A stretch of DNA of 64,000 bases from an uncultured Bacilli bacterium (GCA_947628895.1 CANRBS010000003.1:1325-65324); one strand, 5' to 3'; shown: positions 7,032 to 44,986, counted from the stretch's first letter. Notes: a model not told the origin generated them from the sequence alone. Numbers and translations are program-made.

Positions 7032-7040
7032 CAATAGAAG

Positions 7041-7658
7041 CTATTTTTCACCTTTAACTATATATAATATATTATTATCATTTATAACAGTTAATTTAAT
7101 ACTATTCTGATATCCTAAATCTTTTTCATATTCAATAGATACCGTTACTAAATATGCAGAATATTCTTTTCCTTCATAAGTATATTTAGTTTCAAACACA
7201 TTATCAACAATTGCTTTACTAACTATAGGAAGTTCTTGATTTCTTTTACCATCAATATTACTAAGTACATTTTTATATAATGAAGAACCCATATTTTCTC
7301 TAAAGTTCTCTTTAAAATCTTTATGTAAGAATTCAAGACCACCTATATCAGTACTAGCAAGCTTATTATCAAGTGTAAAAACATCTATTACAAATAGTTG
7401 TGATATAAGTTTAGCATATTCTTCATAATTAATTTCATCTGCATTTAAAACATCTTTTAATTCATTAAATGTATCTTTATAAACTTCTGTATCATTTTTA
7501 CTTAATGTATATCCATATAAATCTAATGATACTAATTTTTTATTAGAAGTTGGATTGTTAAAAAAATCTTTATAAACTCTAAAAGCTAAAAATCCAAATA
7601 ATAATACTCCAATTACAATAAATATAATAATTATTTTTAAATCACTTTTCTTATTCAT
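7041..7658 (-). CDS. N-terminally membrane-anchored protein, unknown function
   Basis: 205-aa ORF with one N-terminal TM (IIIIFIVIGVLLFGFLAF). An 8-nt overlap with the ltaS stop suggests translational coupling. Confidence 0.6.
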   Translation of the reverse strand: MNKKSDLKIIIIFIVIGVLLFGFLAFRVYKDFFNNPTSNKKLVSLDLYGYTLSKNDTEVYKDTFNELKDVLNADEINYEEYAKLISQLFVIDVFTLDNKLASTDIGGLEFLHKDFKENFRENMGSSLYKNVLSNIDGKRNQELPIVSKAIVDNVFETKYTYEGKEYSAYLVTVSIEYEKDLGYQNSIKLTVINDNNILYIVKGEK

Positions 7659-15421: not shown

Positions 15422-15443
15422 ACTTTAATTCCTTTCTATTTTT

Positions 15444-16202: not shown

Positions 16203-17080
16203 TATTCATTACCTCCTGCTGGTTCTTCATTATTGTTAGTATCATTATTTACATCAGTATTTGTATTATTATTTCCACCAACAATATTAACACCACCATT
16301 TGTTACTCTATCTTGACTTTCTACATCAATAGATCTATCTAAAATATATCTTTGAATTCTAGAACTAACTACTCTAGTTTCTTTAGGATTATTTGAATAT
16401 TCAGCATTTCTTGGTACTGGGAATATAGTTCCATCTAAATATGATGCTTTTCTTAATAATAAATGCATATCTTCTGGAACACTAAACATTAAATAAGAAG
16501 GAGTTTTATTTTCTTCAGTTGATTCAAAAACATTATTTCCTTCTGAATCAGTTACAGATAGAACTTTTATACTTTCTATAAATTTTCCTAGCATAACTTT
16601 TCCAGTATCTAAAGTTGTAACATAATATAAATCTATATAATTTCCAGGAAAGATTGAATTACCATAAGTAGTATCTAAATTTACTTGAAGTGCAACAACA
16701 GTATTACCATCTGGTATATCTTCATATAAACTTGAAGGTAAATCTTCCCATTCAACAACCATATCTTTATAAAATAAACCTCCACTTGGTATTACTGCTT
16801 TATTAGATACATATTTTCCTATAATTTGAGAAGTACTTGTTAATAAATTGCTATTTTTAACTCCTCCTGGTACTTTCATTGTAGAAACCATATCTGATGT
16901 TATTAAAGTTCTCGGAGCTATTTCAACAGTTGCATAAGGAACACTAATAGGTTCAGTTTTCTTTTCTATTCTATAATAATATGCCCAATATAAAATACCT
17001 AGTGAAGCCAATATTGCTAAAATTGTCACTGTATTTTTATTTTTTAAAAATCTTTTAATTCCAATCATTATGCTATTCAT
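16202..17080 (-). CDS. cpaB: CpaB/RcpC-like Flp pilus assembly protein, paralog 1 (N/G/T-rich C-terminal tail)
   Basis: 292 aa with the same layout: ...VPYATVEIAPRTLITSDMVSTMKV...VIPSGGLF...VALQVNLDTTYGNSIFPGNYIDLYY.... Clearly paralogous to the next gene. 1-nt stop/start overlap. Confidence 0.7.
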   Translation of the reverse strand: MNSIMIGIKRFLKNKNTVTILAILASLGILYWAYYYRIEKKTEPISVPYATVEIAPRTLITSDMVSTMKVPGGVKNSNLLTSTSQIIGKYVSNKAVIPSGGLFYKDMVVEWEDLPSSLYEDIPDGNTVVALQVNLDTTYGNSIFPGNYIDLYYVTTLDTGKVMLGKFIESIKVLSVTDSEGNNVFESTEENKTPSYLMFSVPEDMHLLLRKASYLDGTIFPVPRNAEYSNNPKETRVVSSRIQRYILDRSIDVESQDRVTNGGVNIVGGNNNTNTDVNNDTNNNEEPAGGNE

Positions 17081-23600: not shown

Positions 23601-24675
23601 TATTTCCACCATCTAAATCAAATCCTTGATTTGGATTTACACAATATGCTGGAACATTACCTACTTGAAATGATGGAGTACATGCTTGAAATGTTTGTAA
23701 TTGCCTATTGCATTGATAAACTGGACACATTAATCTGTATCTTATTGACCGATTTCCAGTAGCAAAACCTATTGCATTTGGTTCTATCTTTGCTGCTGCA
23801 CTTTCACACAATCCCCAAAAATCTTCGTTTGTTTTTTCACCTTCTGTTGCTATTACTACTTCAAATGGATCAATAGTTTTAAGACAATTATTTAGAAGTA
23901 CATTTGAACCTAAGTGTAGAGTATAATCATCATTTTTGCATTTATAACACCTTTGATTGCTACTATTATATGTATAGCCAGTTGGACATTTATAACATTT
24001 ATCAGTATTTAACAACATTTCGCCATTAGGGCAAGAATAATTAGTTGCACTATGATAAGTACCTGAACAATATCCATTATAACCACCTGTACAAGAACCT
24101 TTTCTACCATTTTTACCTACATTCCAAGTACATCCATTCCTAGTACACTGAGTAATATTTGAATAATTACAACTTTTTGGATCATGCCAAGTACATGTAG
24201 ATTTGTTGTTGCATGTACTTTTAGAAAGACCACTACAATTTGACCAAATTTTATTTTCTGTAGCCTTTCTCATATAAGTTAAATTTGAAGATAGCATTTC
24301 GCCTTTAGCAACAACTACACAAAGGCCAAATGCTTCAACTTTTCTTTCATCACTTGAGCATCTTTGATAATAAGTTGTATATGTTCCTTTATTATCTGGT
24401 CTCCAATTAGTGGCTTGTAAAAGATCACTAAATGACTCTGCAACTTTATCATAATTTGGACCTTCATATACATTAGCAAAAGCTGGAGAACCATCTGCTG
24501 CTTTTGCTCTTGAAAATCCATTACAAACCTCTGTTTTAATATTAAATCCAGCAGGAGATGCTTGACTAGTTTCATTTATTTTTACATTGCAGTCATTAAT
24601 TCCTGCCTTGCTTATAGGAATAAATGAAAAAACAAGAGAAATTGTAAATAATAATTTTAAAAATTTCTTTTTCAT
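20668..24675 (-). CDS. Giant cysteine-rich secreted protein, unknown family (paralog B1)
   Basis: 1335 aa. Signal peptide MKKKFLKLLFTISLVFSFIPISKA, no C-terminal anchor. Many Cys, e.g. ...YSCPNGEMLLNTDKCYKCPTGYTYNSSNQRCYKCKNDDY.... Conserved blocks are shared with 25437-28985. The start lies 1 nt after the stop of the upstream 225-aa gene. Confidence 0.8.
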   Translation of the reverse strand: MKKKFLKLLFTISLVFSFIPISKAGINDCNVKINETSQASPAGFNIKTEVCNGFSRAKAADGSPAFANVYEGPNYDKVAESFSDLLQATNWRPDNKGTYTTYYQRCSSDERKVEAFGLCVVVAKGEMLSSNLTYMRKATENKIWSNCSGLSKSTCNNKSTCTWHDPKSCNYSNITQCTRNGCTWNVGKNGRKGSCTGGYNGYCSGTYHSATNYSCPNGEMLLNTDKCYKCPTGYTYNSSNQRCYKCKNDDYTLHLGSNVLLNNCLKTIDPFEVVIATEGEKTNEDFWGLCESAAAKIEPNAIGFATGNRSIRYRLMCPVYQCNRQLQTFQACTPSFQVGNVPAYCVNPNQGFDLDGGNNYKVDNDFDVTNCQTSYSTVDCGYANIMIEADYHKKKNNTNISDKAIELAMRIWGAHSGQAGFGNDKIGVSRAKWNGSSCADTGFFDSTNVYKNGYNHIFENYLKSLTAKNLPDNYLDVSQNYINDYFSEVTCNYTNMVCGSTTTLRQALALFYNTVLGNRYMQEHLEYLYGNEVNTRPDKVDVETSEEQNDKGEFVKGETNIVLTFDRTVTNTTKTEYNCKDVKKDAELPLDKRTYQDLTDTQRAYILQYCTVKVDNFCIYNDVTDKCEKIDVNDNDKIYDASKGQIIIDTEYFAVCTSENKNKYKEYQVSVNYKRPTQSTSVKKYVSCSNPTGNQIMFAFTTSENNKVSGEEEKNDSYYYPTEEYSVSLNCTGNCTDYSIKTSAPKCQDNDGGVYTGYVRDPSLKCIVNMYSDTNKSYYDYSEYFKVNTNLCRVYCADEVNYYIADKLTVSSGRSFTYDIKPGGVLENKDNKISSIIEEKRRCVSEIYYNKNFPESIDWKKLYGITDKDLEDAFPSGEKSINNIQDLLTVLFIKSQKENSRDENINQILYDLYNCNLYTEEAVKNTEQEKNGQVVIKENIIRQPQDNKTGNLNKYLKNLYSSENHYGLNNDITNTITYEGGAQYINNKNRFIGTNSDDIKVEKEIRSNLSDISYCSGDNCLEYDVSASQDDNYAYDKFKDESTTATVKNAIEVKKTLTGLTERLNDLYITKIPINDYAMFYTSIQIDFYNDSEFKMEALTGEVKKSTDEGSLDVVALDKYSYPTSKDAYNSGKCKVIDSNVARCDITQTINNMTTYYRRRSLDSFSKYLTSTDFTELTCHIDVTRPSVLPQESQSGNSDSITDPITKYRNVKLSDLFPNGDRINSNWATEYGKIAKNEIEKSSSQINSDLYLEYSFDLTPQSIREIKSYNRKVEGQGGYLNDTKISGTCTQKDNKFFNCKSSFLEEIRGGNSLYVNNNDQKNKFDGISKYTAEKK

Positions 24676-25436: not shown

Positions 25437-28400
25437 TTATTTATTTTCTTTAGTATATTTTGAAATACCATCAAATTTATTATTAGGACTATCATTATCT
25501 ACATATAATGAATTACCACTACCTATATCTCTTAAGAATGAACTTTCACAATTAAAGTATTTATCATTTGTTAAAGTACAATTTGATAATGTATTATTTA
25601 AGTAACCACCGTTTTTTTCCATTCTAGAATTATAATTTTTAATTTCTCTAATAGATTCTGGTGTTAAATCAAAACTATACTCTAAATAATAATCATCATT
25701 AGTAATTCTACTTGAAGATTCAGCTATTTCATTTTTTGCTATAGTTCCATATTCAGTTGACCAATTTGTATTATCTCTTTCTCCATTTGGGAATAAATTT
25801 GATAAATCTACATCTCTATATATAGTCTTACTATTAGCTGACTGTTCTACTGTAACTTCAGGTATTTTTACATCTACAGAACAATTAAACTTTGTAAGAG
25901 TTGATTTAGTTAAAGCATTACTTAAGTCATCAGTTTTTCTATTTCTGTAAAAAGTACTTGCATTACTAAATGTTTGAGTAACACCACAACTTGCATAGTC
26001 TTTTGATGATTTGCTACATAAATTATATGCATTTTTAGATAATGGATATGAAAAACTATCTAGTTTAGCATAATTTTCATTATATGAACCTATAATCTTA
26101 TTTACTTTTCCACTATATTGTTCTATTTCAAATTCACTTGAATTATAGAAACCAATTTGTGTTGTTATAGTAAACATTGCATAATCATTAACAGGAATTT
26201 GTGTATCTAATATTTTCTTTAAATTCTTAATAGAAGTTGATTTACCATCAATTTCATATCCTGTTGATCCTAATTCAATATTACCAAAAGTATCATAAGT
26301 ATATTTTTCATTTTTACTATCATATGGCAAACATTCATAGCCAAATCCTGTACAATACTTAACATCTGATACTTGTGATTTAACTTCTTTCTTCATATCT
26401 ATATCATTGTTATTATTGCCTACTCTTGAAGATGAATTCATATATTCACTTCCACCTTCATATGAAACAGTATTTAGCCACATATCATCTAAATTTTTAG
26501 AATCTACTAAACCATAATTATTTTTACTATTAAATAAAGTATTTACATAATTATAAGAATCTCCGATAGTATTATCTTTAGGTCTTGTTATATTTCCATT
26601 AGTAAATGTTGATATGTCTTTGACAAAATTACAATTATATAAATCATATACTAATTGATTTAAATTTTCAGATCTATAACCTTCAGATTGAGACTTTTTA
26701 AATAATACAAAGAATAAATCTTTCCAATTTCTAATTTTAGGATCATCTTTAAGATATTTATTAATTTCTTCTTCTGTTATTCCATATATTCCTTCCCAAT
26801 CAGGATTATTTGGAAATTCATTATTATAGTATATTTCAGAGACACAATTTCTCTTTTCTTCAATAATACTACTAAACATTTTACCACTATCATTTAATAG
26901 ATTACCTGGTTTAATATCATATTTAAATTGTAAACCAGAAACAGCATCTATTTTTCCTGCTATATGATAGTTAACTTCATCACTACAATATACTCTACAT
27001 AAATTTGTATTTACTTTAAAGTAATTGCTATAATCATAATAATTTTTATTTGTATTTGAACCCATATTAATAATACAACTTAATGATGGATCTTTTACTG
27101 TACTAGTATAGTACTTATTGTATTCTTTTTGACTTTCACATTTACTTACATTTTCTCTTATTCCATAATTAGTACAAGCACCTGCACAATTAATAGATAT
27201 ATTAAATAGTTTATCATCTTTTTCATCTTTTGTTATACTTTCACCTGGTACTTCTTCAGTAACAGAAACTCCTTGAAATGAAAATAAGTATTGATTTTCT
27301 TCTGGTTCACTACAAGCAATATATTTTTCAACACTAGTCTGTGTTTTAGTTTTTAAATATTCAACTTCTAATTCATAATGAGTATATTTCTTTTGACCAT
27401 TAACTTTACAAGCAGCAAACTTTTCTATATCAAAATCTATTGTTCCTTTATATCCATCAAATTCTTTACTATCTTTATCTACATCAATAGGTATTCTATT
27501 TCCATCATTGTCATATACAAAGAAATTTAAAACTTCAATATTACAATATTTTAATATATTTTCTCTTAAAGGTTCATCTATATTAGGATATTTTCTTTTT
27601 TCTTTTGGTAAATCTTTATCTTTTTCTAAATCATTACAATTAAATGTTTCTTCAGTTTGAATATTAACATTTCTTTCAAATGATAATTCTAATCTTGATT
27701 TTTCTTCTACAGTTTCTACTATAGCATTTGTAGGTTCAGTATTAATATCATATCCTACAATACTATATAGATGTTCTTGCATATATTTATTTCCATTATA
27801 TGTATTAAAGAATAAAGCTATAGCTTCAGCATAATTTAGTAATTTACCACAAACCAAACTGTTTTGTGAATTTTTACATGTAACTTCATCAAAATAACTA
27901 TTAGCTTTGCTAGCATCTACATATTCTTCTTTACTTATTTTATCAAAGAAATATTTCCAAATATAATCATGTGTTATTTTATAAATATTAATTACATCAT
28001 CATCTGCAACAAAAGTTACATACTCACTACAAGAACCGCCTATTACATTAGCTACTCCAACTTTTTTATCATCAAATCCTGCTCCACCAGTATGAACACC
28101 CCATAATCTTAATGCAAGTTGTATTTGTTGCTCATCAATATTATGATATTTTCCCTCAATTAATATATTAGCATAACCACAATCTGCTCTATTAAAGCTT
28201 GATGCAAAACATTTATTAATATCAAAAGTTTTATCTAACATATAATTATTACCATTTGATAAAAATGGAGCAAATCCTTGACTAGGATTAACACAATAAG
28301 CTGGTTTTTCACCAGTTGTAAATGTTGGTGTACAAGTAGATACCTCTTCAGTTTTTGCATCACATCCATATAGTGGACAATTTAATGTATATGTTTCACT

Positions 28401-28985
28401 AGTACACTTAGTACAATTATTATCATTTTCTTGATTACATGTAGCTAAAGCATCAAAAGAAGAATCAATATTAGTAAAATCTTTTGACCAAGTAGTTGTT
28501 GTAGTATCAGATTCCCATTTTCTATTTTTATAACAATATCCATTACTTAGATAAGGATATCCAGTTGGACAACGGTGGTTTACCATAGGAGTGCCATCAC
28601 TATAATGCCAATATGGATCACCTTTTGTTTCAACTGTACAAGTTACATTAGCATCTATATGTGCATCAGGAACATCACATCTTTTGACTTGTACTGTTTC
28701 AATTGTTTTAGCATCAATTGATTCTCTAGTTTTATATACCCATTCATTTTGATAATCAAAAGCGGCTTTAACAGTATCAAAACTTTCTGTATCCCATCCT
28801 TTTGGCACAGCATTTTCCATATCACATATAGTAAGATTAGAACTCCAACTAGTATTCCATGTAGAAGGATCATTTTCAGTTATTCTAATAGTACACTCAT
28901 TTCCTGTTACATCAGCATTAGTAAGTGGAATAAATATAAAAGTAAATAAAACTGTAAATAATAATTTTAAAAATTTCTTCTTCAT
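25437..28985 (-). CDS. Giant cysteine-rich secreted protein, unknown family (paralog B2)
   Basis: 1182 aa. Signal peptide MKKKFLKLLFTVLFTFIFIPLTNA. Blocks shared with B1 include ...CTPTFTTGEKPAYCVNPSQGF..., ...DCGYANILIEGKYH..., ...ALRLWGVHTGGAGF..., ...FKVNTNLCRVYCSDEVNYHIA... and ...LEYSFDLTPESIREIKNYN.... Confidence 0.8.
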   Translation of the reverse strand: MKKKFLKLLFTVLFTFIFIPLTNADVTGNECTIRITENDPSTWNTSWSSNLTICDMENAVPKGWDTESFDTVKAAFDYQNEWVYKTRESIDAKTIETVQVKRCDVPDAHIDANVTCTVETKGDPYWHYSDGTPMVNHRCPTGYPYLSNGYCYKNRKWESDTTTTTWSKDFTNIDSSFDALATCNQENDNNCTKCTSETYTLNCPLYGCDAKTEEVSTCTPTFTTGEKPAYCVNPSQGFAPFLSNGNNYMLDKTFDINKCFASSFNRADCGYANILIEGKYHNIDEQQIQLALRLWGVHTGGAGFDDKKVGVANVIGGSCSEYVTFVADDDVINIYKITHDYIWKYFFDKISKEEYVDASKANSYFDEVTCKNSQNSLVCGKLLNYAEAIALFFNTYNGNKYMQEHLYSIVGYDINTEPTNAIVETVEEKSRLELSFERNVNIQTEETFNCNDLEKDKDLPKEKRKYPNIDEPLRENILKYCNIEVLNFFVYDNDGNRIPIDVDKDSKEFDGYKGTIDFDIEKFAACKVNGQKKYTHYELEVEYLKTKTQTSVEKYIACSEPEENQYLFSFQGVSVTEEVPGESITKDEKDDKLFNISINCAGACTNYGIRENVSKCESQKEYNKYYTSTVKDPSLSCIINMGSNTNKNYYDYSNYFKVNTNLCRVYCSDEVNYHIAGKIDAVSGLQFKYDIKPGNLLNDSGKMFSSIIEEKRNCVSEIYYNNEFPNNPDWEGIYGITEEEINKYLKDDPKIRNWKDLFFVLFKKSQSEGYRSENLNQLVYDLYNCNFVKDISTFTNGNITRPKDNTIGDSYNYVNTLFNSKNNYGLVDSKNLDDMWLNTVSYEGGSEYMNSSSRVGNNNNDIDMKKEVKSQVSDVKYCTGFGYECLPYDSKNEKYTYDTFGNIELGSTGYEIDGKSTSIKNLKKILDTQIPVNDYAMFTITTQIGFYNSSEFEIEQYSGKVNKIIGSYNENYAKLDSFSYPLSKNAYNLCSKSSKDYASCGVTQTFSNASTFYRNRKTDDLSNALTKSTLTKFNCSVDVKIPEVTVEQSANSKTIYRDVDLSNLFPNGERDNTNWSTEYGTIAKNEIAESSSRITNDDYYLEYSFDLTPESIREIKNYNSRMEKNGGYLNNTLSNCTLTNDKYFNCESSFLRDIGSGNSLYVDNDSPNNKFDGISKYTKENK

Positions 28986-33550: not shown

Positions 33551-35635
33551 CTATTTTTTCCTCAAATATTTGTGATTAGCTGCAATGGATTTTATACCTA
33601 CTCCATAAGAGAATGCTATTGTAGCAATACCACCGCTTATATTTATAACGACTCCTTCTCCAAATACTGTATGAATAACTTTATCTCCAGCTTTTATTTC
33701 ATCAGATGATTCATTATACATATTACCTATTACTTTAGTTTCATTGTTTTTAATTTGATCTTCTTTTGTATTTGTAATATTTAATAAACTTTTATCTATT
33801 TCTTTAATAAATCTACTTTCTATAGTACCACTTGTTTTACCATAAAGTGTTCTACTTCTTGCACTAAGTAAATAAAGTTTTGTTTTAGCACGAGTAATTC
33901 CTACATAACAAAGTCTTCTTTCTTCCTCAAGTTCACTTTCACTTTCAAAACTTCTCATATGTGGAAATATTCCCTCTTCCATTCCTAGTATAAATACTAC
34001 TTTAAATTCAAGTCCTTTAGCAGAATGTAATGTCATTAAATTAACAGCTTCTTTATTTTCTTTATATTGTCCTGCATCACTTACTAAAAGTATATTTTCT
34101 AAAAATGTTTGTAAGTCATAAATACCACTTTCTTCAAATGCAACAGCTACACTTTTAAATTCATTTAAGTTTTCTATTTTAGCTTCATTTTCAAGTGATT
34201 TATTATTTTCATATTCCATTCTAAGTCCAGTTTTAACAAGTACGGTTTCAATTAAATCAGATAAACTTAATGAAGTTGAATCTTCTTTTAATTCTAGTAT
34301 TATGTTTTTCCATTCTAGTTCTTTTCCAGAATCAATCGCATCAAACATAGATATGTTATTTAACTGTGCTTTTTCTCTTAAAGATTCTATTGTTTTAGTA
34401 CCAATTCCTCTTTTTGGAGTATTAATAACTCTTTCTAAACTTACTGAATCATTTGTATTATAAATTAAGTTTAAATATGCGATTAAATCTTTTATTTCTT
34501 TTCTACTATAAAAGTAATAACTACCTATAATATTATATGGAATATTACTTCTTAAAAATTCATCTTCAATAACTCTACTTTGAGCATTAGTTCTATAAAG
34601 AACAGCAAAGTCATTATAATTGTATCCAAGAGATACTAAATCTCTTATTTTAGCTGTAACATAATGAGCTTCTTTTATTTCATCATCTACTCTTATATAA
34701 TCTATTTTTTCTCCATCACCAGAAGAAGTCCAAAGATTTAATTTTTTACCTTCATTATTATTTTTAATAACAGAATTTGCTGCCTTTAAAATATTATTTG
34801 TACTTCTATAATTTTCTTCAAGTAAAACTACTTTTGCGGTTTTATAATCTTTTTCAAAATTTAATATATTCCTATAGTCAGCATTTCTCCATGAATAAAT
34901 TGATTGATTAGCATCCCCTACTACAAATATATTTTTATATTTACTTGCTAACATCTTACATAATTCATATTGAATACTATTAGTATCTTGATATTCATCC
35001 ACTAAAATATATTGAAATCTTGTTTGATATTTATTTAATATTTCTGGATATTTTTTAAATAATTCTACTGGCTTTAATAATAAATCATCAAAATCAACAG
35101 AATTATTTTCTTTTAATAATTTTAAGTATTTTTCATATATAACAGCTATTACTTTATCATCTTCTTTTAAAAATAGCCTATTATATTCAGCGGGTGTAAT
35201 CCCATCATTTTTAGAACTACTAATTCTTGATATTATATGTTTTATATCATAATCTTTTGGATCTAAATCCATTTCTTTTATTATTCTTTTTATTAATGAT
35301 TTAGTATCATCACTATCAAGTATTGTAATATTAGAAGTATACCCTACTTCTCTATAATTTTCTCTTAATATTCTAAGTCCAAAAGAGTGAAAAGTTCCAA
35401 TAAAAATAGAATCAGTACTAGTACCTAATTTTAATTCTACTCTATCTCTCATTTCTTTAGCAGCTTTATTTGTAAATGTTATAGCTAAAATATTATAAGG
35501 ACTTACTCCTTCATCAATTAATTTTATTATTCTTTCTGTCAGTACTCTTGTTTTACCACTTCCAGCTCCTGCTAGTACTAAACAAGGTCCATCTTTATGT
35601 TCAATTGCTTCAATTTGTTTTTCGTTTAATGTCAT
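33551..35635 (-). CDS. pcrA: ATP-dependent DNA helicase PcrA (UvrD/Rep family, SF1)
   Basis: 694 aa. ...GPCLVLAGAGSGKTRVLTERI... (motif I), ...ILVDEYQDTN... (motif II), ...VGDANQSIYSWRNA..., ...NYRST..., ...LMTLHSAKGLEF..., ...ERRLCYVGITRAK.... C-terminal ...GDKVIHTVFGEGVV.... Confidence 0.95.
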   Translation of the reverse strand: MTLNEKQIEAIEHKDGPCLVLAGAGSGKTRVLTERIIKLIDEGVSPYNILAITFTNKAAKEMRDRVELKLGTSTDSIFIGTFHSFGLRILRENYREVGYTSNITILDSDDTKSLIKRIIKEMDLDPKDYDIKHIISRISSSKNDGITPAEYNRLFLKEDDKVIAVIYEKYLKLLKENNSVDFDDLLLKPVELFKKYPEILNKYQTRFQYILVDEYQDTNSIQYELCKMLASKYKNIFVVGDANQSIYSWRNADYRNILNFEKDYKTAKVVLLEENYRSTNNILKAANSVIKNNNEGKKLNLWTSSGDGEKIDYIRVDDEIKEAHYVTAKIRDLVSLGYNYNDFAVLYRTNAQSRVIEDEFLRSNIPYNIIGSYYFYSRKEIKDLIAYLNLIYNTNDSVSLERVINTPKRGIGTKTIESLREKAQLNNISMFDAIDSGKELEWKNIILELKEDSTSLSLSDLIETVLVKTGLRMEYENNKSLENEAKIENLNEFKSVAVAFEESGIYDLQTFLENILLVSDAGQYKENKEAVNLMTLHSAKGLEFKVVFILGMEEGIFPHMRSFESESELEEERRLCYVGITRAKTKLYLLSARSRTLYGKTSGTIESRFIKEIDKSLLNITNTKEDQIKNNETKVIGNMYNESSDEIKAGDKVIHTVFGEGVVINISGGIATIAFSYGVGIKSIAANHKYLRKK

Positions 35636-35764
35636 ACTATTTACCTCTTAAAAAATTATAACATTTATTTTATTTTTTTTATAGCAAACATTTTTAAAAA
35701 TAGTAAATTTATAACAAATGATAATGTTTAGAATATAATACTATGAAAGAAAGAGAGGTAACTT

Positions 35765-36349
35765 ATGAAAAAATTAATTTTAACTATAGTAGTGATTATG
35801 ATTATTATTACACTTAGTATAATAGTAGGAATTAATGTAAAAAATAAAGATGAAAATAAACTTGATAAAGTTGTTGTTAGTGAAGTTACACATTCAGTAT
35901 TTTATGCTCCATGGTATGTATCTATAGAAAAAGGATATTTTAAAGATGAAAATATTGATGTTGAAGTATTATTAACTCCGGGAGCTGATAAAGTGGCAAC
36001 AGCTGTAATATCAAAAGATGCTGATATTGGATTTTCTGGACCTGAAGCAACTATTTATGTTTATAATAATTCAAAACAAAAATTATTAACATTTGCATCA
36101 CTAACTAAAAGAGATGGACAATTCTTAGTAGGAGACTGTAAATTAAAAGACAACTTTACAATGGACAAGTTAATTGGAAAAACAGTTTTAGCTGGAAGAA
36201 GTGCTGGTATGCCACTTATGATGTTTGAATATGCCCTAAAAGAAGCAAATATTGATAAAAGCAAAGTAAACATTGATACAAGTGTAGAATTTGCTGGACT
36301 TACCGGTGCTTTTATAGGTGGTCAAGGTGACTTTGTAAACTTATTTGAG
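35765..36349 (+). pseudogene. 5' fragment of an NMT1/ThiY-like ABC substrate-binding protein gene, interrupted by the recombinase element
   Basis: The track ORF ends ...GDFVNLFEQSAMIII*. The conserved sequence stops at ...FVNLFE (GAG 36347-36349), after which element DNA supplies 7 foreign codons and a stop. Confidence 0.75.
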
Positions 36350-36385
36350 CAAAGTGCAATGATAATAATTTAGTATTATAATTCT

Positions 36386-36424
36386 AATAAAAAGTCAAAT
36401 TGATTTTTATTTCAACTTGACTTT
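36386..36424 (-). terminator. Rho-independent terminator after the kinase gene
   Basis: AAAGTCAAATTG (36391-36402) pairs with CAACTTGACTTT (36413-36424) at 11 of 12 positions. The minus strand continues TTTTTATT. Confidence 0.6.
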
Positions 36425-36428
36425 TATT

Positions 36429-37577
36429 TTACATTTTACTTAATTTCTTTACAAAGTTATTTTCTGTAGTATACTCTTCATAACATTCTTTTATATAATG
36501 TTTAATATATTCCATTTTATTTTCTATATCTTTTACTAATGCTATTTGATTTCTTGCTCTATCTAAATTATGTTTTTCATAATTTATTTTAAAGTATGTA
36601 TCTCCATTAATATAATCATTTAAAAATCTAATTGCTAATTCTAATGTAATTATTCTAATTGATTCTGCCATTAGAGAAAGTTCTTCATAAGTAATATAAT
36701 TTGCCATTTCACTTAAATAACCCCTAGTATAAGACTTAAATAATTCTAAGTTTAAATATACTTTACTTAAATCAGTTTCATCTTCTTTAGCATTAGCCGC
36801 AGTACTTCTTACTCCATCTCCATAATCAAATAACATACTTCCCGGCATTACTGTATCTAGGTCTATTACTGCAAGATAATCATTTGTATCTTTATTCATC
36901 ATAACATTATTAACTTTAGTATCATTATGTGTAACTCTAAGAGGAATTGAATCACTTCCTAATTCTTCAGTTATTAAAGAGCATATTTCCTCTCTCATTA
37001 ATATAAATACTATTTCAGGTGCTACTTCTATTGCTCTTCCTTCTGAATCTATCTTAATATCATCCATTAATTGTTTATATCTTTTATCTGTAATATGAAA
37101 GTCTTTAATGGTTTCAGTTAATCTTTTAATAGGATAATTTCTAAGTAATCTTTGAAAATTGCCAAAAGCTTTTCCTGTATTATATACAATATTTGGATCA
37201 GTTGATGTATCATATGCAATTGCATTATCAATATATTCATAAATTCTATAATATTGTCTTTCACCTGGATGTGGTTCTATATAACAAAGTGATTTATTAT
37301 TTTTAGTTTTAATAACTTTTAAAACTTTATGAGTATAGTCTCCTTCTTTTTGCATTTGCATTTCTAAATAATCTGTAATATTTTCAATATTTTTCATTAG
37401 TTTATATGGTTCTGAAAAAACATTTGTATTAATTTTTTGAACTAAATATTTTTTAAATGAACCATCTTCTAATTCCATAGTTACTGCATATGTACTATTA
37501 ATATTACCTGAAGTGTTTTCTTCAATTTTAATAATCTTTCCTTCTATATTAAAGTTATTAATTATTTCTTCAATCAT
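36429..37577 (-). CDS. Phosphotransferase of the APH/choline-kinase fold, N-acetylhexosamine 1-kinase (NahK)-like
   Basis: 382 aa. ...RVTHNDTKVNNVMMNKDTNDYLAVIDLDTVMPGSMLFDYGD... is the Brenner/catalytic-loop plus DxD region of this kinase fold. The HNDTK.NN / IDLDTV form is what I associate with NahK-type sugar kinases. Confidence 0.6.
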   Translation of the reverse strand: MIEEIINNFNIEGKIIKIEENTSGNINSTYAVTMELEDGSFKKYLVQKINTNVFSEPYKLMKNIENITDYLEMQMQKEGDYTHKVLKVIKTKNNKSLCYIEPHPGERQYYRIYEYIDNAIAYDTSTDPNIVYNTGKAFGNFQRLLRNYPIKRLTETIKDFHITDKRYKQLMDDIKIDSEGRAIEVAPEIVFILMREEICSLITEELGSDSIPLRVTHNDTKVNNVMMNKDTNDYLAVIDLDTVMPGSMLFDYGDGVRSTAANAKEDETDLSKVYLNLELFKSYTRGYLSEMANYITYEELSLMAESIRIITLELAIRFLNDYINGDTYFKINYEKHNLDRARNQIALVKDIENKMEYIKHYIKECYEEYTTENNFVKKLSKM

Positions 37578-37622
37578 ATTATCTCCTTTAAATTACAAGT
37601 ATTTATTATACTTATAAAAAAG

Positions 37623-39242
37623 TTAATTATCAACAAAATATACACTAATTTTGTAAAAAACATTATATCTTTTAGTACTTTTAGTATCATACCCTCTTTT
37701 AAATTTATATTCTTTGTTTAGATATATTTCATTTTTATAATTTAAATATATATCTAAATTAATTATATTATCTATTTTATATACTTCAATATATTTTAAT
37801 ATTAAATTTATTATTTTTTCTTTGTTTATATTATTTATTTTATTATTTAATTTTTGTTTATAATTTATTTTATTCTTAGAATTTAAATGATTTAATTTAT
37901 TTTTTAATTCTAATATTTCATTATTTAATTCACTATTTTTATTTTTAAATTCTTTATTAGATAAACTATTTTCTAAATTAAGTTCTAATATTTTTTCTTT
38001 CTTTAAATTTAAATATTTAATTTTATTTTCTAGTTTTTCTTTTTTATTAGTATCATCATTTTCATAATAATTATAATTCTTTAATAGTATTTCTTCTATT
38101 TCTTTAAAATCAATATTTAAATTATCTATCAAATCATACATTATTTTATTTAATTCACTTTCTCTAATATTTGGACTATCACAATACTTTTTACCTTTTT
38201 TTAAATATCCACTGCATACCCAAGTTACATCTTTATTATTTTTTCTAAATATTCTTCTATAAAATAATGATTTATCATTTTTACAATATATTTTATTTGA
38301 ATATAAATATAGTTTTTTATTAATTTTCTTTTTTCTTTTATTAAGTAATATATTTGCTCTTTGCCATAATTCTTCACTAATTATTGGTGGAACTTTAATA
38401 TTATCTTTATATATAATCCATTTATTTTTATTTAAATAATCTACTCTTTTAGTCATATAATCAACAACATGAGTTTTATTAGCACAATAATATCCTTTAT
38501 ATTTTGGATTTTCTATCATTCTTGATATAGTAGATACACTCCATTTATTATTAAAACTTGTTTTTATATTTAATTCATTTAATTTTTTTACTATTTTAGT
38601 AAGTGATAAATTATCTATTGTATACATTTCATATATTTTTCTTACTATACTAGCTTCTTTTTCTACTATTTTAAGTGTATTATTTATTTTATCTTTTTTA
38701 TATCCATACATCATATCATTACCAAGAATTTCTCCATTTTTAATTGCTCTTTTCATACCAAACTTTACTCTTTCAGATAGTCTTCTTACTTCATCTTGTG
38801 CCATTGATGCCATAATTGTAAGTCTTAATTCTGAATCACTAAGTGCTGTATTTATATTATCATTTACAAATAGTACAGCTACTCCATATGAAAGTAATTC
38901 TCTTGTATATTTTATACTATCTAAAGTATTTCTTGAAAATCTTGATATTTCTTTTGTAATAATTAAATCAAATTTATTACGGCTTGCATCCTCTATCATT
39001 TTCATAAAATTATCTCTTTTAATATCACTAGTTCCACTTATACCATCATCTATATATCCTTTTACATAAGTCCAATTAGGATTAGATTTTATATATTCAT
39101 AAAAGTGTTCTTTTTGATTATTTAATGATTTCTTTTGTTCTAATGAATCAGTTGATACTCTTACATAATCTGTTACTCTAAGTTTAATGTTTGATAGTGG
39201 CACTCCCATATTTAATTCATTTCTTATTTTATATAAATCCAA
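37623..39242 (-). CDS. Large serine recombinase (resolvase/invertase N-domain + recombinase domain + Zn-ribbon/coiled-coil)
   Basis: 539 aa. TTG start 6 nt after GAGGTGA. ...VTDYVRVSTDSLEQKKSLNNQ... (catalytic Ser region), ...ITKEISRFSRN..., ...RLSERVKFGMK.... Later Cys cluster ...YCKND...WVCSGYLKKGKKYCDS..., then a long K/N-rich coiled-coil. Confidence 0.85.
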   Translation of the reverse strand: MDLYKIRNELNMGVPLSNIKLRVTDYVRVSTDSLEQKKSLNNQKEHFYEYIKSNPNWTYVKGYIDDGISGTSDIKRDNFMKMIEDASRNKFDLIITKEISRFSRNTLDSIKYTRELLSYGVAVLFVNDNINTALSDSELRLTIMASMAQDEVRRLSERVKFGMKRAIKNGEILGNDMMYGYKKDKINNTLKIVEKEASIVRKIYEMYTIDNLSLTKIVKKLNELNIKTSFNNKWSVSTISRMIENPKYKGYYCANKTHVVDYMTKRVDYLNKNKWIIYKDNIKVPPIISEELWQRANILLNKRKKKINKKLYLYSNKIYCKNDKSLFYRRIFRKNNKDVTWVCSGYLKKGKKYCDSPNIRESELNKIMYDLIDNLNIDFKEIEEILLKNYNYYENDDTNKKEKLENKIKYLNLKKEKILELNLENSLSNKEFKNKNSELNNEILELKNKLNHLNSKNKINYKQKLNNKINNINKEKIINLILKYIEVYKIDNIINLDIYLNYKNEIYLNKEYKFKRGYDTKSTKRYNVFYKISVYFVDN

Positions 39243-39460
39243 AAGATCACCTCAAATTATTTAATTTTTTTAAAATATTATCTTCAGTATATTTATATGT
39301 TTTATAAGAAATATAATTATCTTCTAACATTTCTTTATTTATAATTAGTGATAATTCATAAATAACTTTTTTATTTTTACTTTTCATATTAAAAAATATG
39401 TATATTTAAGAGTAAATTATTACAATTATTTACTGACTTTCTTATATAACATTAAGAGAA

Positions 39461-39868
39461 CCTAATGCTACAGCTTTAGAAAATGAAGGATATGGTTGTG
39501 TTCTATCTTCCCTTGGTAAACTAACAGGTACTGTTCCATATACAGCATTTTATGCAAGAGAAGAATATATAAAAGAAAATAAAGATTTAATACAAAGATT
39601 TAATAATGCTCTAAATAAGGGATTAAAATTTGTAAAAGAAAATGATAGTAAAACTATTGCTAATGCAATTATTAATCAATTTCCAGATACTTCATTAGAA
39701 GATTTAATAAAAATAGTTGATAGATATAAAACTGCAGACTCATGGTATGATAGTACTTATGTAAATACTAAAGACTATAATAGACTTGTTGATATTATGA
39801 TTTATGGTAAAACAATAGATAAAAGAATCAATGTAGAAGATCTTATTACTAATGAATTTAACAAATAA
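39461..39868 (+). pseudogene. 3' fragment of the interrupted NMT1/ThiY-like SBP gene
   Basis: In-frame translation is PNATALENEGYGCVLSSLGKLTGTVPYTAFYAREEYIKENKDLIQRFNNALNKGLKFVKEND...ITNEFNK*. It ends at TAA 39866-39868, overlapping the ATPase start (39852) as in an intact operon. Confidence 0.75.
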
Positions 39869-40601
39869 AATTTTATCAGTAAATAATGTATCTAAATCAT
39901 ATTATTCACTTAATGGAGAAACTAATGCTTTAGATAATATATCATTTGATTTATATGAAGGTGAATTTTTAGGAATAATAGGTCCATCTGGATGTGGCAA
40001 AAGTTCTATATTAAATATAATTTCAGGGTTAGATAAAGAATATAAAGGTAAAATATATATTAAAGATGGTATTAAAATTGGATATATGTTTCAAGAAGAT
40101 GCATTATTTCCATGGCTTACTATATTAGATAATGCTTTGTTAGGACTTAAAATATCTAAAAAATTAAATCAAGAAAATAAAAATTATGTTTTAAATTTAC
40201 TTAAAAAATATGGCTTATATGATTTTAGAAATAAATATCCAAATGAACTTTCTGGTGGTATGAAACAAAGATTAGCTCTTATTCGTACTCTTGCTACTAA
40301 ACCTGATATATTATTGCTTGATGAACCTTATTCTGCTCTTGATTATCAAACAAGATTAAGTGTTGGTAATGATGTTTATAATATAATTAAAGAAGAAAAG
40401 AAAACAGTTATTATTGTAACTCATGATTTATCAGAGGCTATCGCAAGTTGTGATAGAATAATTGTTTTTAGTAAAAGACCATCTACTATTAAAAATATTC
40501 ATAATATTGAACTTACAAATAAAAAATCCCCAATAGAAAATAGAAAAGCAAAAGAATTTTCTATTTACTATGACATTATTTGGAAGGAAATTGATAAATA
40601 A
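39852..40601 (+). CDS. ABC transporter ATP-binding protein (nitrate/sulfonate/taurine-type, SsuB/TauB-like)
   Basis: 249 aa. Walker A GPSGCGKSS, signature LSGGMKQRLALIRTL, Walker B ILLLDEP. Confidence 0.9.
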   Translation: MNLTNKILSVNNVSKSYYSLNGETNALDNISFDLYEGEFLGIIGPSGCGKSSILNIISGLDKEYKGKIYIKDGIKIGYMFQEDALFPWLTILDNALLGLKISKKLNQENKNYVLNLLKKYGLYDFRNKYPNELSGGMKQRLALIRTLATKPDILLLDEPYSALDYQTRLSVGNDVYNIIKEEKKTVIIVTHDLSEAIASCDRIIVFSKRPSTIKNIHNIELTNKKSPIENRKAKEFSIYYDIIWKEIDK

Positions 40602-41374
40602 TGTCAAAAGAATATAAAAACTATATTAAAAAATTAAAAATTAATAAATTTAAAGTAATATTATGCCAAATATTAATAGCAGTTTTATTTATAGTTATAT
40701 GGCAAGTACTTGCAGATAAAAACTTAATTAATACATTTATTACAAGCTCACCTAAAAATATAATAAATACATTAATTAGTTTATATAATCAAAATAATTT
40801 ATTTTTACATATATGGGTTAGTGTTAAAGAAACAATTATTGCATTTTTAATAACTAGTATTGTATCTATTTTAATAGCAATAATATTATATAATTTTGAT
40901 TTTTTATCAAAAGTTTTAGACCCATATTTAACTATATTGAATTCATTACCTAAAGTAGCTCTTGGCCCAATTATTATAATATGGATTGGTGCTAATACTA
41001 AAAGTATTATTACTATATCAGTATTAATTTCTATTATTGTTAGTATCCAAACTATTTATAATGGCTTTAAAAATACCGATAAATTAAAAATAAAGTTATT
41101 AAATACATTTAATGCTAGTAAAAAAGATATACTTTTAAATGTTGTAATTCCATCTAATAAAGATATAATATTAAATACATTTAAAATAAATATTTCTATG
41201 TGTTTAATTGGGGTTATTACTGGAGAATTTTTAACTTCAAAAGCAGGAATTGGATATTTAATATTATATGGTTCTCAAGTATTTAATTTAAATCTAGTAA
41301 TGAGTGGAATATTCTTACTTACAATTATTTCATTTGTTATGTATAAGATAGTATTGTTAATATCAAAAAAGTAA
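40601..41374 (+). CDS. ABC transporter permease (SsuC/TauC-like, BPD-type)
   Basis: 257 aa, about 6 TM helices. Start overlaps the ATPase stop. ...LNSLPKVALGPIIIIWIG... region. Confidence 0.8.
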   Translation: MSKEYKNYIKKLKINKFKVILCQILIAVLFIVIWQVLADKNLINTFITSSPKNIINTLISLYNQNNLFLHIWVSVKETIIAFLITSIVSILIAIILYNFDFLSKVLDPYLTILNSLPKVALGPIIIIWIGANTKSIITISVLISIIVSIQTIYNGFKNTDKLKIKLLNTFNASKKDILLNVVIPSNKDIILNTFKINISMCLIGVITGEFLTSKAGIGYLILYGSQVFNLNLVMSGIFLLTIISFVMYKIVLLISKK

Positions 41375-41498: not shown

Positions 41499-42485
41499 AT
41501 GACTATAGAAGAACTAAGTAAAATTGCTAATGAAGAATATATTCAAAATCCAATAGAATTAGCTCAAAAATTAAATATTTTAGATGATAAAGAATATGTT
41601 GAATTTTTAAATTTAGTTTTTGAATACAACAAAAAAATTATTTCAAGATTAAAAAATGATATTAGTTTTATTAAATCTAGTAATAAAAAAACTAGAGAAT
41701 TTAATTTTAATATGTCTAATTATGAAGAATATAAAGATGAAGATAAAAGTGATAATACTGATAATGAATTAAGTAAAAAAGCAAAAGAAATAATTTTATC
41801 AATTAATAGTTGTACCAATATGGATATAACTTCTCTATTACCTTCAAAAGATAATTCTAATTATCATTCAATTATAAATGAATTATTAGTTCATTATCTT
41901 AAAGATATTGTTTTTTTAAATAATTATATGTTAAATTTTTATAATGAACTTACATCTGATGAACTTAAAGAATTAAAAATAGAATTAGAAAAAGCAAGAT
42001 ATATTTTTGAAACTATAAAAAGTAATCGTCAAGATAATGAAAATGAAGAAGATGTTATAACTAATGAACCACCTATACTTATTTATTTAGAAACACCTAA
42101 TGGAAATACATACTTTCATCAAGATATTTTAAAATTACCAACTGAGTTATATATAAACTTCTTAAAAATCTTTGAATCTTTTATTTCAGGGAAAGAAACT
42201 TTTATTAAACATATGGCTAATTATAAAAACTTATCATGTATTAAAAATAAAATGCATCAAGCAAGAATATATATTATGAATATTACTGATAATATTTATA
42301 TTGTTTTAGGTGCTTTAAATAAAAAAACAGATTGGTCAAAATCAGAATCTATATTTGTATTAAATCGTTATGCAAGAGCAAATTTATTAAAAGATTTAAT
42401 TTCATCAAAAATTAATGATCAATCTTTCTTAGATGAGCAACAAGAAAAAACTCAAAAAGCATTAAAACTTTTAAGGGGTGAATAA
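41499..42485 (+). CDS. Hypothetical protein with C-terminal RelE/Gp49 (HigB)-like toxin-fold region
   Basis: 328 aa. The C-terminal ~110 aa read ...ILIYLETPNGNTYFHQDILKLPTELYINFLKIFESFISGKETFIKHMANYKNLSCIKNKMHQARIYIMNITDNIYIVLGALNKKTDWSKSE.... This follows the strand-helix-helix-strand pattern and the ...R(I)Y......I(V)L.A..KK.D motif of Gp49/RelE-like proteins. By-eye call only. Confidence 0.45.
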   Translation: MTIEELSKIANEEYIQNPIELAQKLNILDDKEYVEFLNLVFEYNKKIISRLKNDISFIKSSNKKTREFNFNMSNYEEYKDEDKSDNTDNELSKKAKEIILSINSCTNMDITSLLPSKDNSNYHSIINELLVHYLKDIVFLNNYMLNFYNELTSDELKELKIELEKARYIFETIKSNRQDNENEEDVITNEPPILIYLETPNGNTYFHQDILKLPTELYINFLKIFESFISGKETFIKHMANYKNLSCIKNKMHQARIYIMNITDNIYIVLGALNKKTDWSKSESIFVLNRYARANLLKDLISSKINDQSFLDEQQEKTQKALKLLRGE

Positions 42486-44301
42486 TATGGATTTAATTAA
42501 ATTAATAGAAAATGAAATGATATCAATTAAAAATAAAGAAGAAATTAAATATAATGAATTTTTTATTAATACATTTAGTAAATATTCAAATAATTCACCA
42601 TCTACAATAGAAAATATTAGTAATGGAGAGTTATTTACTCTATTAATAAAAATACATTTACCTCAAATTTCTTTTAATGAAATTGATAAAATTCAAAAAT
42701 TTATTGATAAGTTTTTTATAGAAAATCCAACAACTGATTTAACTAAATTTATTTCTTATTTTAAACTAGCAATTTCAAAACAATATAATAGTGGACTTAC
42801 TAGTATAGTATTGACTATTTCTAAATATAACGAATTAGTTGACTTTTTAAATCAATACAATGAATCTAACTCTCAATTAATATTAGATTGGTTAGAATTA
42901 TTAGAATTAAAATCTTACAATAATAAAATAAATCAAAAAATAAAAGAAGAGAATATTGAAAAAGATAAAATTAATAAATATGTTAAAACTCAACTTGATA
43001 CATATAGAAAAACTAGTAATTATCAATTAGTATTATCAAAATTACAAAATCATTTACTAGAATGTCAAAAAGAATTAAAAAGAAATAAAAAATTATTATT
43101 AAATTATCAAAATATCTTAGACAAATTAAATAGAAATGAAAGATTTACTGAAATAGAAAATTATTGGAAAGTTTTCTCTTTTGAAATACAAAAAGAACTT
43201 ATTTTAAAAGTGTTTGAAGAACAAAAAAAATTATATAATGAATTATTAGAAGAAAAAAATAGTTTAAAACATTCAGATATATATGAATTATTAATGGAAT
43301 TAAATGTTCATCCAATATTTATTGATTATATTGAAAGATTAAATTTAGATAAAGAAAATTTAAGTGAAATACTTAATATAATTAAACAAAATAATTTCCC
43401 TATTTCAAAAATAACTGATAAAAAATGTTTAACAACTTTATTATCAAGTGATAAAAAAAATATTATATCTTTAATTTCTTATTTTAAAACATCTGCTATT
43501 GATATTGAGTTTTTAATAAAACACCCACAAATATTAATTGATAAAAGTGATAAAAAGCCTTATGGTTTAAGTGAAATTGCTAATAATAATTTTAAATTAT
43601 TAAAAGATAATCAAGCACAATTTAATAGTGAATATTATAATCCAAATATTCTTTTATTAGATAGTAATGAACTTTATAAAAGAATTAAACTTGCTGAAAA
43701 TTATAATTTAAATTTAAAAAATAATGAAGAAGTATTTAATTTAATAAATGAACCAAGTTTATTTGATTTATTAGATTTTGCTATTGAAAATGGTTTACCA
43801 ATAGATCAAATTATAAAAATAAAAGCAAATAATGAAGAAATTAATAATATAATTAAAAGATTATTAATTTATGAAGAATTTGGTTATGATATAATTGTTG
43901 ATTCTAAAATTAATTATAATATTATAAATGGAAATTCATTCTTTGTTCCAAATGAAATGTTAGATGAATTAATTGAAAACTCAACTCAATATGAAATAAA
44001 TAATGAAATGGAAGAAATACTTAAAAATAATGAAAGATTAGAATTATATCAAGTAGATGATAATGTTAAATTGTTAGATGAATTATTTTTAGATGAAGAA
44101 ATAGGAAATTATAACTTTTATGGTGTAATTATTTCTAGAAATAAAGTATTAAGAAATTTATATGTTCTAAAAAAATACTTTAATGATTATGATGAAAACT
44201 ATTTAATTTATCAATCAATAATATTTAATGAAATTTTAAAAACAGAAGAATTAGATTTAATTAAGAATTGTTATAAACAATATACTAAAAAATTAATATA
44301 A
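42478..44301 (+). CDS. Hypothetical helical protein, unknown function
   Basis: 607 aa. 8-nt overlap with the upstream gene. No TM, signal or catalytic motif recognised. Confidence 0.6.
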   Translation: MNNMDLIKLIENEMISIKNKEEIKYNEFFINTFSKYSNNSPSTIENISNGELFTLLIKIHLPQISFNEIDKIQKFIDKFFIENPTTDLTKFISYFKLAISKQYNSGLTSIVLTISKYNELVDFLNQYNESNSQLILDWLELLELKSYNNKINQKIKEENIEKDKINKYVKTQLDTYRKTSNYQLVLSKLQNHLLECQKELKRNKKLLLNYQNILDKLNRNERFTEIENYWKVFSFEIQKELILKVFEEQKKLYNELLEEKNSLKHSDIYELLMELNVHPIFIDYIERLNLDKENLSEILNIIKQNNFPISKITDKKCLTTLLSSDKKNIISLISYFKTSAIDIEFLIKHPQILIDKSDKKPYGLSEIANNNFKLLKDNQAQFNSEYYNPNILLLDSNELYKRIKLAENYNLNLKNNEEVFNLINEPSLFDLLDFAIENGLPIDQIIKIKANNEEINNIIKRLLIYEEFGYDIIVDSKINYNIINGNSFFVPNEMLDELIENSTQYEINNEMEEILKNNERLELYQVDDNVKLLDELFLDEEIGNYNFYGVIISRNKVLRNLYVLKKYFNDYDENYLIYQSIIFNEILKTEELDLIKNCYKQYTKKLI

Positions 44302-44371: not shown

Positions 44372-44986
<615 letters not shown>

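Follow-up and report, generated by a model that had tools for sequence, protein, structure and literature searches.

Genes interrupted by elements that encode a large serine recombinase (LSR) are known mainly from large, prophage-like inserts in sporulation and heterocyst genes. Skin with SpoIVCA, skinCd with CD1231 and CD1234, SPbeta with SprA and SprB, and gin with GirC and GirX are all LSR elements located inside an open reading frame (ORF), and small directionality partners have been described among them (the 72-aa CD1234, the acidic SprB, and GirX). The gin element carries 31 genes, and the other skin-type elements span 14–134 kb. Here we describe an LSR element of 3.1 kb that splits the gene for the substrate-binding protein (SBP) of an ABC transporter in a 64,000-nucleotide stretch of DNA from an uncultured Bacilli bacterium (GCA_947628895.1 CANRBS010000003.1:1325-65324; the whole stretch is called the window). 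As with the skin-type elements, in-silico excision of the window element restores an intact conserved protein. Skin-type elements are large, lie in sporulation genes, and are excised in a terminal cell type, whereas this element is small and lies in a transporter gene, and no link to sporulation was visible in the window. We consider it probable that the locus represents an integrated LSR element with one conserved GA target site, the window copy being an excision-impaired deletion derivative that carries a captured kinase gene.

Other described systems resemble the element in part. Its likeness to Tn4451/Tn4453 (recombinase TnpX) and Tn5397 (TndX) lies in a small or modular element, a single LSR at the element end, and a circular intermediate, which for the window element is a predicted one. 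The passenger of Tn4451-type elements is unrelated to transfer, this being catP there and a kinase gene in the window element. Tn4451 has a GA dinucleotide at the crossover or target, and the window element is like the Tn4451/Tn4453 type in having GA at the element ends and in the target. Tn5397 also has a GA dinucleotide at the crossover/target (PMC4430133). Unlike Tn4451/Tn4453, the window element has no mob gene or oriT (tnpZ and RSA) and its LSR is not a TnpX orthologue, with only the N-terminal catalytic domain of TnpX matching the window LSR (E = 6.6e-8). The family to which the element belongs uses one strictly conserved target, in contrast to the loose target choice of Tn4451 and Tn5397, and its LSRs are accompanied by a small conserved gene, while TnpX and TndX need no partner. 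The staphylococcal cassette chromosome (SCC) elements (CcrAB/CcrC) are similar in being LSR-driven, in lacking transfer functions, in carrying passenger genes, and in using one conserved chromosomal site. SCC inserts at the 3' end of rlmH and does not destroy that gene, whereas the window element splits its target gene mid-ORF. The phage serine integrases A118/LI, phiC31, and Bxb1 share with our LSR the domain organization, the 2-bp crossover, and a zinc-ribbon-domain (ZD) motif shifted by 5 bp (PMC3783163), but the window family has no phage genes and its elements, where completely delimited, are only 3–6.5 kb long.

The 5' part of the SBP gene (35765–36349, plus strand) encodes codons 1–195 of an NMT1/THI5-like protein of the NitT/TauT type, as identified from the ORF list, a Pfam NMT1 match (E = 4.7e-12), and intact homologues; its ORF reads 8 more codons into the element, to a stop at 36371–36373. 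The 3' part (39458/39461–39868, in frame, plus strand) encodes codons 195/196–330 according to translation and alignment and has no start codon of its own. When the two halves are joined at the shared GA, the product is a 330-aa NMT1/SsuA-like SBP that matches thousands of homologues of about 325 aa from end to end without a gap, the best at 87% identity. The two fragments are contiguous in thousands of relatives and are not separate genes. The peptide GDFVNLFEPNA, which spans the joint, is near-invariant, with E replaced by Q in 1 of 12 aligned sequences. The stop of the joined gene overlaps the start of the gene for the ABC ATPase (39852–40601, plus strand), which is followed by the permease gene (40601–41374, plus strand); both are intact and belong to the same operon, with the same synteny in a related organism, and the insert lies between the SBP promoter and these two genes. 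An initial annotation, made from the sequence alone, had placed the split at these coordinates with in-phase resumption, a 330-aa joined protein, and an overlap with the ATPase start, and each of these features is present.

The comparison with relatives that the initial annotation proposed was made with the related organism's locus L001 (loci are identified by number), in which the SBP gene is intact and the neighborhood PcrA/UvrD–SBP–ATPase–permease is conserved. L001 aligns to window positions 33552–36348 and 39458–41211, with a 2-nt overlap consisting of GA. This two-block alignment delimits a precise insert of 3,111 bp at 36349–39459 (one GA copy counted), whose genes are arranged on the minus strand in the order 46-aa protein, LSR, NahK-like kinase; the latter two had been annotated as a 539-aa recombinase and a 382-aa kinase with a terminator on this strand, and they are found at the coordinates then given. 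The uninterrupted site of L001 reads GGTGACTTTGTAAACTTATTTGAACCTAATGCC (also given as …GTAAACTTATTTGAACCTAATGCC…), and the attB of its intact gene, …TTATTTGAACCTAAT…, is identical to the predicted one. GA is found at both junctions as well as in the overlap with the empty site, in agreement with the 2-bp crossover core without target duplication that had been proposed. The element has a GC content of 19.9% compared to 23.2% for the window. Independent assemblies of three other ENA samples contain this structure as well, with no more than 1 mismatch over 13 kb, which shows that the split is not an assembly artefact. ENA assemblies ERZ27249377, ERZ27249363, and ERZ27249368 represent the source samples, alongside the NCBI genome. 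According to Pfam and NCBIfam, the target encodes an NMT1/SsuA-like ABC substrate-binding protein and is not a sporulation- or differentiation-specific gene. A tRNA target is excluded because tRNA genes are absent from the window, and a search of the whole window against Rfam at the gathering threshold, including the operon leader and the element, gave 0 RNA matches.

LSRs of the same family occur at about 40 related loci in uncultured, low-GC gut Bacilli, with 53–90% identity to the window LSR (loci examined: L004–L020, L105–L127, L128, and L133). Identity is 90% for L004–L006, 63% for L007, 60% for L008–L013, 54% for L017–L020 and L128, and 55% for L133; it is 53–64% for the 23 metagenome loci L105–L127, and 79–82% for two partial contigs. 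Wherever the contig reaches far enough, the LSR is adjacent to part of an SBP gene, which is always interrupted at one and the same codon and has GA at its junction. The break falls within the L-F-E/P-N codons (the slash marking its position) of an SBP gene that belongs to a NitT/TauT-type ABC operon. At attL, 29 family loci (30 with the window) showed this codon together with the GA core; the SBP fragment was placed by tblastn only in L122–L124 and L128, and 5 contigs are too short to show the flank. The completely delimited elements measure 3.1 kb (window), 4.1 kb (L118), 5.2–6.5 kb (L116, L110, L117, and L004), and approximately 5.3 kb (L017). Larger members carry RhuM, helix-turn-helix (HTH) regulators, group II intron, or NikA-like genes, and phage genes were found in none of the family elements examined. 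The family is a compact, well-delimited one, consisting of a small protein, an LSR, and variable cargo, and its transporter target and kinase cargo are new. Among the cargo of L008–L012 is a group II intron reverse transcriptase (RVT_1 and GIIM, approximately 2338–5510) that is apparently split or duplicated, together with RhuM and NikA-like genes. In L111 (3408–11704) and L112 (1059–7238), a single SBP 5' fragment is accompanied by a tandem pair of different family LSRs, which have 52% and 60% identity to that of the window and are separated by about 6.6 kb; the arrangement suggests accretion of elements at the site.

The recombination sites were located by comparing junctions across loci. 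The attL site (36321–36360, plus strand) comprises a host B arm (36321–36346), GA at 36347–36348, and an element P' arm (36349–36360). The attR site (39432–39485, plus strand) comprises an intact P arm (39432–39457, with GACTTTC at 39435–39441), GA at 39458–39459, and a B' arm (39460–39485). In an alignment of the four kinds of half-site, with positions counted from the GA core outward, nCTTAgTGyaA (positions 1–11) proved to be a proximal motif common to all four, and a distal AAGTCAC was found at positions 19–25 in P and P' and at positions 14–20 in the host B arm. The family attP has dyad symmetry. The distal motif of the B arm, GGTGACTTT (reverse complement AAAGTCACC) at 36326–36334, is encoded by the conserved G-D-F codons (GGTGACTT). 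Serine integrase sites have a recombinase-domain motif and a ZD motif, and in attB the ZD motif is shifted inward by 5 bp, toward the core, relative to attP (PMC3783163). Because the proximal and distal motifs follow this layout, the family would be expected to behave as a canonical LSR system; as read from the alignment, the att sites show the canonical serine-integrase arrangement. We infer that an LSR dimer binds P-type and B-type half-sites through the proximal (recombinase-domain) and distal (zinc-ribbon-domain) motifs. Excision is predicted to yield …GTAAACTTATTTGAACCTAATGCTAC… as the repaired attB and …AACATTAAGAGAGCAAAGTGCAATG… at the junction of the circle; in longer form these are GGTGACTTTGTAAACTTATTTGAACCTAATGCTACAGCTTT for attB and CTTATATAACATTAAGAGAGCAAAGTGCAATGATAATAA for attP. 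Comparative data thus provide a ready-made LSR/attP/attB set together with a candidate small directionality factor.

The window attL differs from this pattern in that its P' arm is only 12 bp long (GCAAAGTGCAAT, 36349–36360) and the distal AAGTCAC is gone, with TGATAATAATTTAGT in its place; the distal P' motif is present in the sister element L004 and in every other member. To score the arms we used a position weight matrix (PWM) trained on the other family members, with the window's own P arm excluded. The distal P' position of the window scored −8.8 bits compared to +8 to +19 bits for the other arms, a value reached by 8% of random window k-mers, whereas the distal motif of the window P arm scored +8.0 bits. 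Scored by PWM over its full length, the P arm reached 16.9 bits and the P' arm 3.9 bits. Altered LSR specificity was rejected as the cause of this asymmetry because the same LSR must read both arms. A search by PWM for a composite P-GA-P' site, the attP of an excised or circular form, found none in approximately 130 loci.

Comparison with L004, which is 93.7% identical over the LSR and kinase, points to the origin of the truncation. The L004-type strain, with an intact attL, is represented by ENA assemblies ERZ27249148 and ERZ27249643. By BLAST, the homology that continues from the left flank covers just the first 12 bp of the element (to 36360), and it begins anew at 36428, where the kinase gene has its stop codon. 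L004 holds 2.9 kb at this position, with genes for proteins of 430 and 459 aa. The window allele alone has a 67-bp spacer instead (36361–36427, minus strand), which contains the hairpin of the kinase terminator and a T-run and which has no homologue in any fetched locus. These sequence comparisons identify the window copy as a deletion derivative of a form of approximately 6.2 kb. The element had been called minimal in the initial annotation; the size of 3.1 kb is correct, but the smallness is derived, by deletion from the longer form. By analogy with other serine integrases, the loss of the ZD motif from one half-site probably impairs attL × attR excision, because attL keeps only a 12-bp P' arm without the distal motif.

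The LSR gene (37623–39242, minus strand) encodes 539 aa from a TTG start and matches three Pfam families only, Resolvase (PF00239, E = 1.9e-32), Recombinase (PF07508, E = 1.3e-24), and Zn_ribbon_recom (PF13408, E = 4.9e-8). Alignment shows the catalytic Ser in YVRVSTDS, the recombinase domain, and a zinc ribbon with a full-length coiled-coil insert. There is no truncation of the protein relative to its homologues, thousands of which are full length at 539–571 aa. The LSR matches the PHROG 95 integrase (E = 1e-113), and its best match in the PDB is 3g13, the N-terminal domain of a C. difficile conjugative-transposon recombinase (E = 1.5e-37). On the basis of its domains, the 2-bp crossover, and the att layout, it can be assigned to the large serine recombinases/serine integrases. 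Membership in the SCCmec Ccr or XisF groups was rejected, with NCBIfam scores of 98.6 bits for CcrC (cut-off 900), 95.5 for CcrB (900), 57.7 for CcrA (700), and 97 for XisF (375). A phage origin was likewise rejected: the LSR has no relatives in IMG/VR (2.9 million viral contigs), PHROG gave no match to the kinase or to the small ORF, and the element has no phage or transfer genes. It contains three ORFs only, none of which has a relaxase or Mob domain according to the ORF list and Pfam. One branch of the family, L017 (3849–5267) and L128 (1650–3068), has a 472-aa LSR that naturally lacks the coiled-coil insert, with a dN/dS of 0.13. An A118-type integrase with a coiled-coil deletion is an unregulated, excision-only resolvase.

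The 46-aa protein is encoded directly upstream of the LSR (39247–39387, minus strand), and its stop lies inside the LSR Shine-Dalgarno sequence (GAGGTGA). The initial annotation had listed it as a possible 46-codon ORF that lacks a Shine-Dalgarno sequence and ends in the LSR ribosome binding site; these details are correct, but "possible" understated the case, since a homologue lies directly upstream of every family LSR, with the conserved core LNKELF.E.KISYK.FKYTEENILKEL. A good Shine-Dalgarno sequence usually precedes the homologues; it is absent from the versions in the window and L004, which are shorter at the N terminus. The gene has a dN/dS of 0.085 against L004. The protein has 29 matches at E ≤ 1e-3 among 1.84 billion representative proteins, 26 of which are small (42–86 aa) and none of which is annotated; Pfam, NCBIfam, PHROG, and the PDB gave no significant match (best hint SHOCT_2, E = 0.09). 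A single-sequence AlphaFold model, consisting of one long helix, was uninformative. The recombination directionality factors (RDFs) known for gene-interrupting LSR elements are small, 58–72 aa, and have no conserved sequence (PMC12286644). Based on its tight linkage to the LSR, the 46-aa protein is a candidate RDF or regulator.

The kinase gene (36429–37577, minus strand) encodes a 382-aa protein of the Pfam family APH, similar to NahK (N-acetylhexosamine 1-kinase family). The assignment to NahK/APH that had been suggested holds: the protein matches the Bifidobacterium NahK structures 4ocu, 4wh1, and 4ocj (E = 6.5e-79 to 2.6e-78, 269 bits) over residues 4–363 and keeps the catalytic-loop HNDTK.NN and IDLDT motifs. 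Unlike NahK of Bifidobacterium, it is encoded in a mobile element and not in a galacto-N-biose/lacto-N-biose (GNB/LNB) operon, and no GNB/LNB pathway genes were found near the kinase either at the element or at its core locus. Its dN/dS against L004 is 0.05. The kinase terminator hairpin (36390–36425, minus strand), with a fold of −15.2 kcal/mol (z = −5.07), was missed by a simple terminator scan, being AT-rich, and was supported by folding. A promoter-like site, TTGATA-17-TATAAT (37605–37633, minus strand; 11/12 match), lies upstream of the kinase within the 3' end of the LSR gene; the promoter scan is weak in this AT-rich DNA, with 36 sigma-70-like matches in the region compared to 45.9 in shuffled sequence.

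Kinase homologues that are 74–78% identical lie in many contigs at a core locus with the order lspA–rluD–sigma factor–kinase–PRC barrel–UDG. This core locus, as seen in L021–L024 and L129–L132 (kinase at 7001–8134 or 8001–9134), also contains gpsA, LemA, and sometimes GerQ. The kinases that are 83–100% identical (window, L004, L017, L128, and L133) are without exception located 3' of a family LSR and group in a single clade, and the linkage persists where the LSRs are only 54% identical. The kinase is best understood from these loci as a core chromosomal gene that was captured once by the element lineage, has persisted across four or more rearranged variants, and is probably the part that selection has kept. 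It had been regarded as unusual cargo; the cargo is there, and it can be specified as a core metabolic gene relocated into a mobile element.

Additional insertions were observed in the same operon. A different element (L001 6038–7949, L004 3731–5642) interrupts the permease gene of L001, L002, and L004 at codon ~204 (equivalent to window position 41211); it encodes a 422-aa serine recombinase, an HTH_36 protein, and an SNF2-like helicase of approximately 2,096 aa. The operon of L004 accordingly contains two serine-recombinase elements that differ from each other; in the window, the permease gene is uninterrupted and encodes 257 aa. The SBP gene, too, is hit repeatedly at a second site, near codon 147 (…AGR../GMP…, the slash marking the site). 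In L128 (1051–13911) the SBP gene is in three pieces, residues 1–148, 139–195, and 191–324, and L017 (8923–9105) also shows this second site. The second element of L128 carries a 481-aa LSR (32% identical), a SpaA/TED pilin, a sortase, and a xanthine/uracil permease. Short remnants of the SBP N-terminal part (residues ~145–195) in L008, L106, L114, and L117 were considered as deletions; all of them start at codon ~147 (…GGMP…) like that of L128, so that a second element inserted upstream is most likely.

We propose that a non-phage, non-conjugative LSR element integrated by conservative site-specific recombination at the GA in the SBP gene. A deletion then stripped it of two cargo genes and cut the P' arm of attL back to its first 12 bases. 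With attL × attR recombination impaired, the SBP gene and the promoter connection of the operon would be locked off in the window strain, and the kinase, with its own promoter-like site and terminator, would be retained by selection. The clonal 3.1-kb allele was probably locked in by a recent deletion, and the practical conclusion for the window copy itself is an ordinary one, that it represents a family of LSR elements in decayed form.

Several points weigh against this explanation. The effect of the truncation on recombination is extrapolated from other serine integrases. When the window was compared with L004, dN/dS was 0.088 for the SBP 5' part and 0.058 for the 3' part, similar to the values for the ATPase (0.079) and PcrA (0.14). 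If the gene had long been locked off, its two halves would not be expected to show purifying selection of this strength. Polarization with L001 places on the window branch 20 SBP changes that are synonymous and 3 that are non-synonymous. On that branch, derived changes are not in excess in the LSR, with a dN/dS of 0.23, or in the 46-aa gene (10 compared to 12). Because the SBP halves are constrained and the LSR and 46-aa gene lack excess changes, either the damage to attL is recent or excision works with a 12-bp P' arm.

These points bear on a second explanation, that the element is an active reversible switch, which we consider possible but rather unlikely. The LSR and the 46-aa protein, acting as a directionality factor comparable in size to the known RDFs, would excise the element, rebuilding the SBP and reconnecting the operon, and the circle would either reintegrate or be lost; the interrupted state would be the default and the intact state transient. 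A switch would account for two intact SBP halves under purifying selection as strong as that on the neighboring PcrA and ATPase genes, and for an LSR and small ORF that are intact and constrained. The divergence data are also in its favor. Synonymous divergence (dS) between the window and L004 is 0.19–0.43 for the element genes and 0.16–0.40 for the flanks, with blocks that cross the junctions: the kinase (0.43) goes with the N-terminal part of the SBP (0.40), and the LSR (0.19) with the C-terminal part (0.16). Because the values for element and flanks match and the step in dS lies inside the element, between kinase and LSR, and not at the att junctions, the comparison suggests that the insertion is older than the split between the window and L004. 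In an independent pair, L017 and L128, the SBP pieces differ by 16 synonymous and 1 non-synonymous changes in a gene that has been cut twice. The selection and divergence data favor, at the level of sequence, reconstitution of the SBP over evolutionary time, and we read the family as being excision-competent now or recently.

An active switch in the window strain is harder to reconcile with the missing distal P' motif of its attL. It is also at odds with the absence of any intact SBP more than 87% identical to the window's among 5.8 billion protein clusters, even though assemblies have yielded the interrupted allele seven times or more. In the genome set, no intact locus exceeds 91% DNA identity to any interrupted one, and the best 80 matches listed in a contig scan all have an intact SBP. 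The lack of an attP-type composite site in the loci searched counts in the same direction, although assemblies show the majority state and a rare excised form is possible. The initial annotation had posed the choice between a decayed or domesticated element and a reversible switch. That choice can now be stated more sharply, with the truncated attL indicating decay and purifying selection on the SBP halves, the LSR, and the small ORF indicating reconstitution. Since the split pieces are under purifying selection, the question of switch or scar is testable with junction reads.

A more general interpretation, which we offer only tentatively, is that the mini-elements are domesticated excision switches, and not parasites, in a clade of non-sporulating gut Bacilli. 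It is conceivable, with similar reservation, that a membrane-anchored, surface-exposed SBP and its operon are off by default and are rebuilt in a subpopulation or under a particular condition. This interpretation fits the strong purifying selection on the pieces of genes split once or twice, and the branch whose naturally coiled-coil-less LSR resembles the A118-type excision-only resolvase. If true, a switch would extend developmental gene reconstitution from sporulation and heterocyst genes to a nutrient transporter and to elements of only 3–6 kb. An ordinary selfish insertion into a conserved but dispensable gene, recent and independent in each lineage, with SBP conservation reflecting the time that the gene was intact before insertion, is very improbable: conserved genes are typical integrase targets and the operon looks like a landing pad, given the cuts at permease codon ~204 (L001/L004) and SBP codon ~147 (L128 and others), but dS is similar for element and flanks with blocks spanning the junctions, the linkage of the kinase to LSRs only 54% identical between kinase-carrying variants is old, and a recent solo arrival is unlikely for a 3.1-kb element that has no transfer functions and a damaged end.

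The window is chromosomal DNA of 23% GC in which MetRS, PcrA, Tad-like pilus genes, and sortases are present. Intact SBP homologues are found in uncultured gut "Bacilli," "Tenericutes," and metagenome-assembled genomes of the Clostridium sp. CAG:524 and Mycoplasma sp. CAG:956 type, which derive from human, rabbit, ruminant, and chicken samples. Directly 3' of the permease, at 41499–44301, are two overlapping ORFs (328 and 607 aa) that belong to no Pfam family; in L001 and L004, it is the other recombinase element that lies on this side of the operon. The minus strand contains very large ORFs at 51089–60184 (3,031 aa), 20668–24675 (1,335 aa), and 25437–28985 (1,182 aa). A protein combining SH3_3, cadherin-like, and dockerin domains is encoded at 2569–4755, and a Tad/Flp-like pilus set, comprising a T2SSE ATPase and two RcpC/CpaB-like proteins, at 13901–17080. 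A collagen-triple-helix repeat protein (44372–44986) adjoins a GT2-TPR glycosyltransferase.

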